Below, one piece after another: positions 22,132-34,400 of a stretch of DNA of 64,000 nt. Made by a program: the position numbers and the translations under genes. The notes below the pieces were generated by a model. It did not search any database. It worked only from the letters and a program-made list of their open reading frames with translations, and had not been told where the DNA came from. The first letter of the stretch is position 1. Each line of letters starts with the position of its first letter. The stretch comes from a virus (taxonomy: Duplodnaviria > Heunggongvirae > Uroviricota > Caudoviricetes): IMG/VR virus record IMGVR_UViG_3300046003_006038, positions 64,001 through 128,000 of that record; one strand, given 5' to 3'.

Positions 22132-22191
22132 ATGTGTATAAATTTATGTATATTGCCTACTCTATTCAGTTTTCAGCTTCCCTGTTTTTAA

Positions 22192-26861: not shown

Positions 26862-26917
26862 AAATTTACTTGTCTGTTCCAAGTTGTCAAACCTGTCAAG
26901 AGTCGGTTAAGCTTCAG

Positions 26918-26992: not shown

Positions 26993-27103
26993 AATTTACC
27001 TGTCTATTCCAGGTTGTCAAGGTATTGTTATTACGAGTGTACCTTAACCTCGTGTTCACCTTTTTCACACCAGAGGTTGTGAACAATGGCCTTTCTGGTT
27101 TTG

Positions 27104-28093: not shown

Positions 28094-28600
28094 CTAAAAG
28101 AATAAAAATGTTTCCCATTCTTTAGGAATATCTTGAACCTGTCTTAGTAACATTAAATAATGTGGTCGTTTAGGTTCTGGGATGTCTTTTCCATATTCTT
28201 CTAATGTTAAATCTGCTTTTTCATGATTACATGTTCTACAAGCTGTAACTAAATTATCCCATGAATCTTTTCCTCCTTTTGATTGAGGAATGACATGATC
28301 CAATGTTAGTGTTCTTTGATTTGAACTACCACAGTAAACACATTCGTAATTATCTCTCTTATAGACATTTTCTCTATTTAGAGGTACTTTGTGAATATTT
28401 TGTTTAACATAACTAAATACTCTAATGATAGAAGGTTTAAAAATTTCCAATTTTGGATTTACTAAACCAAATGTTTCTGGATGTTCAGCTATTACTTCTG
28501 CATTACCTTTGTAAGAAATCACAAATGCTCTTTCTACTGGTATGATACTTCTGGCGATAAAGCTCGAATCCACTACTAGTGCTTTTTGATACTTACTCAT
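28094..28600 (-). CDS. HNH endonuclease (McrA-like)
   Basis: RDNYECVYCG...LTLDHVIP..KGG...NLVTACRTCN. Confidence 0.88.
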   Translation of the reverse strand: MSKYQKALVVDSSFIARSIIPVERAFVISYKGNAEVIAEHPETFGLVNPKLEIFKPSIIRVFSYVKQNIHKVPLNRENVYKRDNYECVYCGSSNQRTLTLDHVIPQSKGGKDSWDNLVTACRTCNHEKADLTLEEYGKDIPEPKRPHYLMLLRQVQDIPKEWETFLFF

Positions 28601-28633
28601 GATTTACTTTTTTTAATGAAACAATATATTTTG

Positions 28634-28704
28634 TGGAGTATTTGGGACTCGAACCCAGGCCTTGCAGCGTCTACTGCCTGCACATCCACTTGTGCTTTTA
28701 CCCC
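28634..28704 (-). tRNA. Atypical tRNA: Ala-type acceptor (G3:U70, A73) with 6-nt loop TAGACG
   Basis: Good D and T arms; anticodon loop non-canonical. Confidence 0.55.
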
Positions 28705-28775
28705 AATTTCTTCAGGAGAAACTGGTAAGGGGTAACCTAACGGAATTTAATCCTTACTTTGTTCTCCGTCTTCTG

Positions 28776-28846
28776 CGCGAACCCGAGGAATCGAACCTCG
28801 CCATGACAGTTTTGGAGACCGCACCGACACCTTGTCTGTGGAACGC
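28776..28846 (-). tRNA. tRNA-Trp(CCA)
   Basis: Loop CTCCAAA; two U-U mismatches in acceptor. Confidence 0.75.
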
Positions 28847-29938: not shown

Positions 29939-30583
29939 TTATTTTATTTTTCGACCTAATCTCCATCCTTCTGGGATTGTGTCTCCTTTGGGTATTTTTT
30001 TATTTCCTATCTCATTTGTAATCCAACAAGTCCCATATTGAGAATTAGTAACTCCTGTACCTGCGTGCTTATGAGATTGTTTCATTTTTTCAATAGAATC
30101 TTGAGTATGTCTTCTTCCTGCCCAATGTCCTTTATTCATATTCTCTCTACTACCTTCTCTATACTCTTTTTTTCTCTGTTCTCGAATTACCTCAGTAAGG
30201 TATTTTCTAAACTCTTGATTTTTCCATTTTTCCTGCATATAGCTCTTTGCAGCTATCTTTCCTTTTTCTCTTACTTCTTCAGACCATCCTCCCGAACCTC
30301 CTTGTTTTAAATTTAAACAGTTTGGATTTTTTAAATCCTGTTCTGTTATTAAATTAATTTCAGCTCGAACTAATTCTTCTCTTGAATCAAATTGCTCTAG
30401 TATTTCAAACTTAAAATTGTCTCTACCGTATTTATTTAGTTCGTAGTATAGTCTTTTACCACTTCCTAAATAACCATCATCTATACGGTTAGTTGAATGC
30501 ATTCCCAGGTAATACCTGCCGTTTATAAGATTTGTTGTCTTATATGTGAAATGAAATCTCTTATTCTCTTTGATGTTAGCCAT
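29939..30583 (-). mobile_element. GIY-YIG homing endonuclease inside tRNA cluster
   Basis: FTYKTTNLINGRYYLG...YLGSG...E; placement parallels T4 segB in its tRNA cluster. Confidence 0.88.
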
Positions 30584-31505: not shown

Positions 31506-31817
31506 TTATCCTTTTATTAATTTTTTTTTCTTAACTGGCTCACATCCATCACTATTAATTGATGTAAGTTTCTGTTCTAATTTATCTACTCTGGAGTCTG
31601 TGTGTCTTAGACATTCTCTGTAGATTTGATCTACTCTGTCGATTTCTTGATCTATTCTACGATTTACAGATTGATCATTTTGATGAATCCAATCTTGGTT
31701 TCCTGAGATTGCTTTTTCAAGTTCTCTTACTTTGCTTGCTGTCTTAAACGCTACCACAACCCCCCATCCAAGGAGAGCTATACCAACACCTAAAACAAAT
31801 GCTAAAATTTGTTCCAT
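31506..31817 (-). CDS. Membrane-anchored coiled-coil protein
   Basis: N-terminal TM then heptad-rich region. Confidence 0.65.
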   Translation of the reverse strand: MEQILAFVLGVGIALLGWGVVVAFKTASKVRELEKAISGNQDWIHQNDQSVNRRIDQEIDRVDQIYRECLRHTDSRVDKLEQKLTSINSDGCEPVKKKKLIKG

Positions 31818-31857: not shown

Positions 31858-31961
31858 TAGTCAGGACAGGATTCGAACCTGTAAGCCTTTGCACGTTACC
31901 CCACGTCTACCGGCTATTCAATCGGAGGTAATTTAGCGTATCCCAATTCCGCCACCTGACT
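31858..31961 (-). ncRNA. tRNA-Leu-like shell with rebuilt anticodon/variable region
   Basis: AGTCAGG/CCTGACT-A acceptor, Leu-type D arm, canonical T arm, no canonical anticodon loop. Confidence 0.7.
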
Positions 31962-32019
31962 ATATACTTGTCTTTCCAAGTTGTCATCAATTCCATGTCT
32001 AAGTCTATTGAGAACCTTG

Positions 32020-32124
32020 TAGTCAGGGCAGGATTCGAACCTGCACAACTTGTTTGTCTGTTGGAACAAGTAATCCCAATGGTTGCGACCCATACACTGC
32101 GTTTACCAATTTCGCCACCTGACT
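32020..32124 (-). ncRNA. Second tRNA-Leu-like shell with different insert
   Basis: Same acceptor/D/T arms as 31858-31961; ATGG-GTCGCAA-CCAT hairpin and 7-bp variable arm. Confidence 0.7.
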
Positions 32125-32497
32125 ATTTGCAATTAATGCAAGAGAATATGTAACAATTTAGCACCCTCTTTCTTATCAACAGCATCGGTTGACATAGCTA
32201 TCCAAAGAGTAGGGTCACGTAGGATTGGGTCTTTAATATTTTAGATGTTACTTTCTGACCATCACTACTTGCTGAGACCTCATTTGTGTTGTTAGGGGTC
32301 AGGGTCTTATGCTATCGCAGACACTTTGTTTTTCTTCACACCTACTCCACATTCCTTTCTCAAGGGAACAACACATCTACCATTACTGATAGTATCTTTA
32401 TGTAAATTATTTTGTTCTCAATTGAACTTATTTTTTATTGAGGTACTCTTCCTCACTTCTGACATTTACAAAGGTATTCAATGTTTAACCTTAATTT

Positions 32498-32587
32498 GGA
32501 GTCGATACGGGATTTGAACCCGTATCTCGAGGCAGCCTCGATGTTACCCTAATGGTGGTATTTATTCCCACTTACACCAATCGACTC
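32498..32587 (-). ncRNA. tRNA-like RNA with 7+6-bp acceptor/T stack and minimal anticodon arm
   Basis: GAGTCGA/TCGACTC, TACGGG-TTCAAAT-CCCGTA, TCGAGG/CCTCGA variable arm. Confidence 0.6.
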
Positions 32588-32710
32588 TTTATTACCAACC
32601 TTGGTCTTTCAGGGTTTCTGATTGAGTGCAATAAGTGACGCCTTCCTACTATAAACCCTTGTTCGGAAATTAATACACTCTACTTCTCAATTAACAGCGA
32701 GCATTGGTAA

Positions 32711-32887
32711 TTATTTTACAGCTGTAGTATCTACTTTTACTGTGTCAACTGAAGTTGAATCTACTTTTACTGAATCAACTACTACTGCTGTTGAGTCTAT
32801 TGTTGATGTTTCTGCTGTGTTTACTTGGTTACAACTTGTAATTGTTAAACCTGCTACTAATGCTAATACTAAAAATTTTGTTTTCAT
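32711..32887 (-). CDS. 58-aa lipoprotein with D-(S/T)-x repeats
   Basis: MKTKFLVLALVAGLTITSC lipobox; DST, DSV, DST, DTV, DTT; own promoter at ~32910. Confidence 0.75.
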   Translation of the reverse strand: MKTKFLVLALVAGLTITSCNQVNTAETSTIDSTAVVVDSVKVDSTSVDTVKVDTTAVK

Positions 32888-33878: not shown

Positions 33879-34400
33879 TTATGAATTTTGTTTGAATTTT
33901 CCAATAAATCTTCCATGAATTTTTTCATGACACGGAACACATACTGTTAATCCATTTTCAATATCAAATGCTTTCGAAAAATCCTCACTAAATGGAATAA
34001 TATGATGAGCTTGTAGAAACCCTTTTGAACCACATTTTTGACATGTAAAATGATCTCTTTCAAATACTAATTTTCTCCATTCCAACAATCTTGGATCATT
34101 TCTCCTCTTTTGATTGGTATTTGTTATTCCACCTTTCCAGTTATTATTTGCTGGGCCTGTTTGATTTCTCCCGTAAGCTGGATTTTCAGGGCCCTTTTTA
34201 AATCTTGTCTTTTTATTAGCTTCAGAATCTTTCATAGATTTTGAAAGGTTCTTACAATGCTCCTCTGTCTTTTTTCTGCCTAATAAATTACTAGATATTA
34301 ACTTACTTTTACATTCCTTACCACAGGTCTTGTAATTATCCCAATGCTGTGTTTCAAATACGTTATTACATATTAGACAAGTCTTTTTTACCTTTGCCAT
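33879..34400 (-). mobile_element. HNH homing endonuclease with Zn-finger/NUMOD3-like N-terminus
   Basis: ERDHFTCQKCG...AHHIIP...NGLTVCVPCHEKIH. Confidence 0.85.

Follow-up and report, generated by a model that had tools for sequence, protein, structure and literature searches.

Two tRNA-shaped genes at the head of a phage tRNA array

As read from their own sequences and those of their homologues, two neighbouring genes on the minus strand of a phage genome (copy 1 and copy 2) form a real, selected pair of RNAs that do not decode. The pair belongs to a known and unexplained kind, the tRNA-shaped stable RNAs of phages, and the notable points here are the modularity and the deep conservation of the copy 2 insert. 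Our main reading, to which a probability of roughly 0.63 is given, is that the operon transcript would be cut by the host enzymes that mature tRNAs into stable RNAs and that the insert would act in trans.

The window is the whole stretch of DNA that was analysed (64,000 nucleotides). Both copies are carried by a virus record of 167,382 bp that is rated complete and has repeated ends. The host is probably Flavobacterium, since the ribonucleotide reductase and the QueC of the phage share 96.8% and 84.4% identity, respectively, with those of Flavobacterium phage vB_FspM_immuto (immuto). Both copies are located at the head of the tRNA array, with queC on one side and an ORF of 103 aa on the other. 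This ORF marks the slot where other shells sit in related phages. A profile search of the phage detected no gene for a LeuRS-type synthetase, a CCA enzyme, Ro60 or RtcB; without its own LeuRS-type synthetase or CCA enzyme, the phage would depend on host enzymes to act on the shells. The features are as follows.

31858..31961, minus strand: copy 1, 104 nt; tRNA-Leu-type shell with a 52-nt insert; encoded C74 at 31857
32020..32124, minus strand: copy 2, 105 nt; same shell with a conserved 53-nt insert
26.5-31.0 kb of the window, minus strand: tRNA array
31506..31817, minus strand: 103-aa ORF without Pfam match, directly downstream of copy 1

Both copies share a 7-bp acceptor stem (AGTCAGG/CCTGACT) with A73 followed by C, a D arm with a 3-bp stem and a class II-type loop, and a perfect T arm. 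Both have the tertiary core of U8-A14, A15-U48 and G18/G19 with the T loop, and both encode C74 as the ordinary tRNAs of the phage do. The copies are identical at 23 of 26 nt at the 5' end and 23 of 25 nt at the 3' end. Their middles (52 and 53 nt) are unrelated, as 831 of 1000 shuffles align equally well. The initial annotation had described two genes of about 104 nt with an acceptor stem, a D arm, a T arm and A73 around unrelated middles; this description, in which only the D arm was called Leu-type, is confirmed (104 and 105 nt), and all stems that it named are present in the sequence. The D arm matches the tRNA-Leu of Bacteroidota genomes, and a bacterial class II tRNA-Leu is the likely ancestor of the shell.

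The ordinary tRNA scoring that had been suggested as a check does not recover the pair, as ARAGORN at default settings calls neither copy. The Rfam tRNA model scores 33.4 bits for copy 1 and 44.3 bits for copy 2, with 46 nt and 45 nt of the middle skipped, respectively. Beyond tRNA, neither insert has a match in Rfam, even at E 10. A guide or antisense role inside the phage was rejected, as the inserts match the rest of the phage genome exactly over no more than 10-14 nt, in single hits. No cultured phage with copy 1 or copy 2 was found by BLAST. Parts of the region occur in 24 RNA runs as assembled contigs, which carry no RNA ends or levels. Four of these runs include relatives as well as contigs with the shell ends around other middles.

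Selection on the shell as a folded RNA

At least 331 distinct copies of the shell were identified from about 220 viral loci, with a median length of 105 nt. Up to about ten copies are present per locus, and their ends are nearly identical. The acceptor stem was fixed by the search patterns, and the other positions were scored only in the subsets where they had been left free. At these free positions, U8 is conserved in 98%, A14/A15 in 85%, U48 in 95%, A73 in 87% and C74 in 95%. The ordinary tRNAs of the same phages have C74 in 98% and A73 in 68%, and the full CCA is rarely encoded. The presence of C74 without the full CCA, as in these ordinary tRNAs, suggests that the shells end as tRNAs awaiting CCA addition.

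Single transitions in the acceptor stem gave G·U pairs 47 times and A·C pairs 6 times (p = 6e-9). The T stem exhibits 58 G·U against 2 A·C pairs and 63 compensatory double changes. The tertiary pair 15:48 also covaries, with G-C observed 8 times against 0.6 expected. The shell frame is under selection as a folded RNA of its own strand, because neither a DNA repeat nor a pseudogene would show the excess of G·U over A·C and the covarying 15:48 pair. The initial annotation had proposed a tRNA-Leu-derived chassis with variable payloads; the homologues support it, and the alignment in which random decay was to be looked for shows conserved structure and no random decay.

The same covariation counts refute the reading of both copies as decayed tRNA-Leu pseudogenes, which is hardly credible. 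The failure of ARAGORN to call the copies and the absence of an anticodon arm agree with decay, but all stems are intact and covarying, and the inserts are longer than any anticodon arm and unrelated to one. It is also very unlikely that the shells are a selfish or neutral tRNA-derived DNA repeat that spreads by recombination with filler inside. Such a repeat would explain the number of copies per locus with their nearly identical ends, the junctions between relatives that fall inside the shell and the cultured relative that has no shells. However, compensatory changes and an excess of G·U pairs relative to A·C that is specific to one strand indicate selection on a folded RNA, and the copy 2 insert persists on unrelated shells, so that this explanation is largely refuted for copy 2.

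The middles of 256 family copies form 223 BLAST clusters, which is an upper bound on the number of insert types. On average the inserts exceed the DNA around them in structure only modestly (mean z -0.77 against -0.30 in the flanks). As most inserts have modest structure and no homologue in the sample, copy 2 may be atypical of the family. Pseudoknots are in modest excess across the family (12% best-of-20 versus 6.6% in the flanks), and a pseudoknot as a family-wide rule was rejected on these values. The earlier idea of swapped-in domains holds, as different inserts occupy one slot in related phages, but the core is not hypervariable throughout: the copy 2 insert outlasts the sequence of its shell. 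The shell end was also found at 22 places in bacterial genomes, all on contigs of metagenome-assembled genomes, which may be of phage origin. The family is described neither in Rfam nor in the literature searched (mostly outside subscription journals).

The insert of copy 2

The insert of copy 2 has 23 distinct homologues on 11 different acceptor stems, from contigs of 31-60% GC. By this distribution the insert is old. A73 is present in 10 of the 11 acceptor types, and three of the 11 encode CCA. The homologues are mostly single genes between co-oriented ORFs, and no neighbouring gene is conserved. The core pattern of copy 2 was found in none of 401 genomes of the Flavobacterium phylum. Two structures were recognised within the insert.

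32079..32093, minus strand: copy 2 hairpin, 4-bp stem ending in two G-C pairs, loop GUCGCAA
32048..32078, minus strand: probable H-type pseudoknot of copy 2, with stem 1 UGG/CCA, stem 2 ACUUG/CAAGU and an A-rich loop 3

The layout consists of the hairpin, then UGGG, then the inner helix with CCA inside its loop. The GUCGCAA loop was fixed in three of the four search patterns used for copy 2 homologues; when it was left free, all 10 hits still had the same loop, and one of these hits was a new and distant sequence. The core bases outside the search pattern are also invariant, and one pair of the hairpin stem occurs as three pair types. The hairpin starts 5 nt from the D stem, a spacer that prevents it from occupying the anticodon position, and loop position 1 is G. 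It appears to resemble a T arm more than an anticodon arm, judging from the two closing G-C pairs and U-C-G at loop positions 2-4.

In the alignment of 20 sequences, 7 of 7 acceptor pairs and 5 of 5 stem 2 pairs change on both sides. This level of covariation is reached by none of 500 shuffles, and slid registers also fall short; related sequences can beat shuffles, and the acceptor stems in this alignment are unrelated. Stem 2 occurs as 12 distinct sequences, which form 5-8 bp in their own helix versus 4.1 in cross pairings, and the helix closes a loop of 10-14 nt that holds conserved bases. Stem 1 is paired in 98% of cases without compensatory change. The more distant hits L240 and L250 carry CGU/ACG at apparently the same places as UGG/CCA. 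A compact H-type pseudoknot formed by UGG and CCA is therefore given as probable, because this pairing is so widely kept and yet never covaries. The elements ATGG-GTCGCAA-CCAT and ACTTGTT/AACAAGT named in the initial annotation are both in the sequence, but the second, described there as a 7-bp arm, is better read as a pseudoknot helix of 5-6 bp.

A preQ1 riboswitch was considered and rejected, as Rfam gave no match and queC, which lies upstream in the window, does not neighbour most copy 2 homologues. Hairpins with a GUCGC(A/U)A loop were also seen in other shells with different downstream modules (L210:3366-3480, L240:5814-5918, L250:870-975 and L239:12079-12189). In L272:1-1136, a unit of 1025 bp is tandemly repeated between two identical copy 2 genes, so that either the unit was amplified when shells recombined or the repeat is an artefact of assembly.

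The insert of copy 1

One structural feature was noted within the insert of copy 1.

31896..31931, minus strand: possible stem of copy 1, 7 bp (TTACCTC/GGGGTAA) closing a 22-nt loop, with the pairing seen in the sequence

The initial annotation had read this pairing as an extended stem. The pairing is present in the sequence, but it is absent from the minimum-energy fold (z -0.97); the inner 7-bp stem of copy 1 is thus possible and is not favoured by folding predictions. The insert exhibits no pseudoknot signal (118 of 200 shuffles are as good), and no arm with a short loop stands in front of the T stem. The only homologue found is L235, with 2 differences in 107 nt. Two matches of 18 nt to the middle of copy 1 (L236 and L237) lie outside any shell and were taken as chance.

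Other RNAs of the locus and exchange among relatives

Further features were identified around the two copies and at one place outside the window.

C1:9549-9635, minus strand: third shell copy, outside the window; 35-nt insert, z -3.5
32498..32587, minus strand: anticodon-less tRNA-like RNA of another type, with G-1/C73, a class II core and a covarying extra arm of 5-6 bp
31966..31985, minus strand: leader hairpin of 5 bp with a GAAAGA loop, 4 nt upstream of copy 1; z -3.8
32125..32497, minus strand: ORF-poor spacer, partly conserved in other phages

The third shell copy is flanked by two copies of a promoter-like repeat. Its insert is also present in L013, L032 and the related phage L293, where the acceptor is unrelated and carries U73. 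The RNA of the other type is labelled tRNA-??? by ARAGORN, and from its sequence it reads best as G-1:C73 (His-like ends) with an encoded C74; a Sec-like stem of 8 bp was not favoured. Homologues of it that keep the stems with other letters occur in L222 and in the cultured phage immuto, where the gene is annotated as tRNA-Cys. A pattern search with the exact 3' end of this RNA gave no homologues.

The 5-bp leader hairpin recurs before tRNA-Ala and tRNA-Asp (window 26999-27018 and 26869-26888, minus strand) and, in other genomes, before many shells. Its loop is of the GAA(C/T)AGA type and its stem covaries among other phages. Of its 24 distinct occurrences, 15 lie at most 25 nt upstream of a shell. 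It is possibly a processing signal. Rfam gave no match for it; the model freshwater-2 (RF02980) has no match at the leader hairpin and none above the cut-off genome-wide.

The ORF-poor stretches at 32125-32497 and 32587-32715 (minus strand) are 84% identical over 230 nt in L025 and 88-90% identical over 95 nt in L224, L033 and L031. They are bracketed by shells and are candidate non-coding RNAs. These spacers bear on an alternative in which the shells serve as punctuation, that is, as cleavage signals that free neighbouring non-coding RNAs and pieces of mRNA from a long transcript, with the insert secondary. In all 131 cases a nearby tRNA has the orientation of the shell, 121 of 311 copies are followed by an ORF that starts at most 50 nt downstream, and the conserved spacers bracketed by shells agree with this role. 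An ordinary tRNA would suffice for it, however, and the invariant bases of copy 2 across unrelated gene neighbourhoods would be left unexplained. We consider punctuation improbable.

In L153, the 3' end of the shell, the flank and the 103-aa ORF are conserved, and the insert and everything upstream are different. In immuto, the third RNA type (the one at 32498-32587) runs directly into the same flank, with the junction at the T arm/3' end; about 640 nt, which in the window hold both copies and the spacer, are missing, and no such shell was found anywhere in the immuto genome. In L222, copy 2 is upstream of the third RNA type, not downstream as in the window. By genome comparison, copies 1 and 2 are accessory, since the cultured relative immuto has neither. 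The junctions in L153 and immuto and the changed order in L222 suggest that the copies move by exchange at the constant ends of the shell.

Leucine identity and decoding

[quoted passage not shown] Both copies share with bacterial class II tRNA-Leu the D arm, U8-A14, A15-U48, the T arm and a 7-bp acceptor stem with A73, followed by the encoded C74. Unlike class II tRNA-Leu, the copies, at 104-105 nt, have no anticodon arm (neither exhibits a 5-bp anticodon stem with a 7-nt Leu loop) and no normal variable arm with a short loop.

One alternative is that host LeuRS charges the RNA and that the work is done by its 3' end, whether charged or not, through EF-Tu binding, donation of leucine outside the ribosome or a starvation signal. 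In its favour, A73, U8-A14, G18/G19 and A15-U48 are kept in both copies, the anticodon arm is not needed by LeuRS (PMC2377443), the D arm is like that of Bacteroidota tRNA-Leu, and A73 accompanies the copy 2 insert on all acceptor types but one. However, L244 carries the copy 2 insert on a class I shell that has G15-C48 and C73, the shell around this insert in L273 has an eroded core, the insert of the third copy is found with U73 (L293), the variable-arm orientation relevant to LeuRS (PMC2377443) is not kept, and A73 is the commonest discriminator in these phages anyway (68%). A leucylated mimic is therefore judged unlikely, though less so than punctuation.

The LeuRS-readable shell of the initial annotation stands as regards A73 and the core, but leucylation as its purpose is weakened. 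Leucine identity is not obligatory, given C73 in L244 and U73 in L293; charging of copies 1 and 2 is possible, but these insert types persist without a need for it. In the sequences compared, what always persists is the paired acceptor stacked on the T arm, which is the part read by tRNA-processing enzymes (PMC3753655).

Decoding by copies 1 and 2 is unlikely on sequence grounds, as no anticodon arm is kept. A canonical anticodon arm after the D stem was found in 5 of 256 family copies, and 7-nt loops of the U/purine type show no enrichment (18, against 15.9 in shuffles). Calls as tRNA were obtained for 62 of 311 shell copies, with scattered anticodons. The idea of a mistranslating or frameshifting tRNA, for example one in which the CGC loop of copy 2 acts as an Ala anticodon reading GCG, is highly improbable and is not supported. 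The loop does have 7 nt, with U at its second position and a terminal AA, and allo-tRNAs with mismatched anticodons function in translation (PMC7609411). Nevertheless, the hairpin has a 4-bp stem, is separated from the D stem by 5 nt, begins its loop with G and is followed by a pseudoknot, canonical arms are rare and U/purine loops not enriched in the family, and GCG is the rarest Ala codon of the phage (72 of 2400).

Comparison with known RNAs

By sequence comparison, copies 1 and 2 do not belong to any of tRNA-Leu, allo-tRNAs, tmRNA, intron-containing tRNAs and type III antitoxins. Allo-tRNAs and selC* tRNAs (PMC7609411) are likewise non-canonical, tRNA-shaped metagenomic RNAs, some of them not used in translation, but their acceptor domains are 8/4 or 9/3 and an anticodon arm is present, whereas the copies have 7/5 and no such arm. 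A tmRNA was rejected, as pair 3-70 of the copies is U-A and not G3·U70, the length is 105 nt and no Rfam tmRNA match was obtained. An intron-containing tRNA was also rejected, as ARAGORN with introns and a relaxed threshold calls neither copy alone; the only call joins across both copies and stands among many noise calls.

The closest natural precedent in architecture and setting is the species 1 RNA of T4 (rnaC), a small stable RNA from a phage tRNA cluster that has no known function (PMC3014915, PMC9697503). Like the copies, rnaC (NC_000866 T4s001) has an acceptor-like stem and a perfect T arm around an unrelated middle, which in rnaC measures about 100 nt. Unlike the shells, it has no Leu-type D arm and its middle is not homologous; the copy 2 model aligned only to its 3' part, at 19 bits. 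Among the T-even phages seen, each genome has a single rnaC and its middle hardly varies, whereas the shells are multi-copy with hundreds of inserts. No match to copy 1 or copy 2 was found in the T-even phages.

The species 2 RNA of T4 (rnaD) has a 5' hairpin tip, GG-GUCGCUA-CC, that is one base from that of copy 2. The tip is invariant in nine T-even copies and is followed by a variable insert. Unlike the copies, rnaD is not enclosed in a tRNA shell, the match of its hairpin by itself does not reach significance (E 0.33), and the proposed analogue of the pseudoknot is broken in phage UPEC01. A full homology of rnaD with copy 2 was rejected, as only the hairpin tip is shared and the rest differs; a module shared by both hairpins is a lead only. 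The rnaD sequences (L274:754-872; L275-L282) have constant ends and a middle that differs among T4, T2 and JS98, so that rnaD is also frame-like.

The ToxI type III antitoxin RNAs and pseudo-ToxI decoys (PMC5086642, PMC3475682) are small H-type pseudoknots, as is probable in copy 2, and they provide a precedent for a phage-made pseudoknot decoy against a host defence nuclease. In contrast to ToxI, copy 2 is a single unit in a tRNA shell without tandem repeats or an adjacent toxin gene, and a comparison with the type III antitoxin models gave no Rfam hit. The likeness to ToxI is an analogy of mechanism only.

The engineered tRNA scaffold of Ponchon and Dardel (PMC3753655) keeps the acceptor, D and T arms and uses the anticodon region as the insertion site, as the copies do, and its RNA is matured by host machinery, as is proposed here. 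The scaffold is artificial and its insert extends an intact anticodon stem, whereas both inner arms are replaced in the phage copies.

Proposed mechanism

Copies 1 and 2 are accessory genes of the phage, and their products would be stable non-coding RNAs that resemble the engineered tRNA scaffold in design. The upper half of a tRNA would be formed by the acceptor stem with the D and T arms, which suffice for the processing of inserted RNAs in E. coli (PMC3753655). Host RNase P, 3' trimming and CCA addition would then cut the RNA from the operon transcript, and the matured shell RNA would be left nuclease-resistant. The insert, which replaces the anticodon and variable arms, would be the working part; in copy 2 this part would consist of a hairpin and a compact pseudoknot. 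Its exposed bases are invariant on a frame that covaries freely, which suggests recognition by a protein or ligand. Within this phage group, the shell would be homogenised to one sequence, and relatives would exchange, gain or lose inserts at its constant ends.

A tentative extension is that copy 2 is a decoy for a host RNA-binding protein of defence or translation. A defence decoy would fit accessory, exchangeable genes and has a precedent in pseudo-ToxI (PMC5086642). Slightly more doubtful is a modular phage platform, in which a tRNA-shaped frame matured by the host carries a large set of interchangeable folded inserts that serve as decoys or aptamers for different host proteins. If so, the targets may be, for example, RNA-recognising defence nucleases, and the platform would correspond, at the RNA level, to the small anti-defence proteins that phages encode in their accessory regions. 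The hairpin and pseudoknot of copy 2 would be one ancient member of it, with a loop shared with the species 2 RNA of T4.

If the inserts are working parts, nature has built the tRNA scaffold of laboratory RNA production and stocked it with many folded modules, and the long-unexplained stable RNAs of T4 would acquire a testable frame. Annotation tools miss the shells or assign false anticodons to them, so that a large class of RNAs in phages stays hidden. The phage immuto (Flavobacterium strain LMO8), which has the third RNA type and neither copy 1 nor copy 2, is a possible natural null.

Other features of the tRNA array

The two real tRNA-Leu genes of the phage (window 27535-27611 and 29088-29161, minus strand) have short variable loops (type I). 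The long-armed tRNA-Leu of Bacteroidota differ from these short genes, and similar short genes recur in related phages. Two irregular tRNA-like genes (window 28633-28704 and 28775-28846, minus strand) were seen only at a relaxed ARAGORN threshold; one is without a clear anticodon and one is Trp-like. Two HNH endonuclease genes and one GIY-YIG-like endonuclease gene are located in or beside the array (window 28094-28600, 29939-30583 and 33879-34400, minus strand). An Rfam DUF805b motif that scores above gathering is located at 22154-22186 of the window (minus strand).
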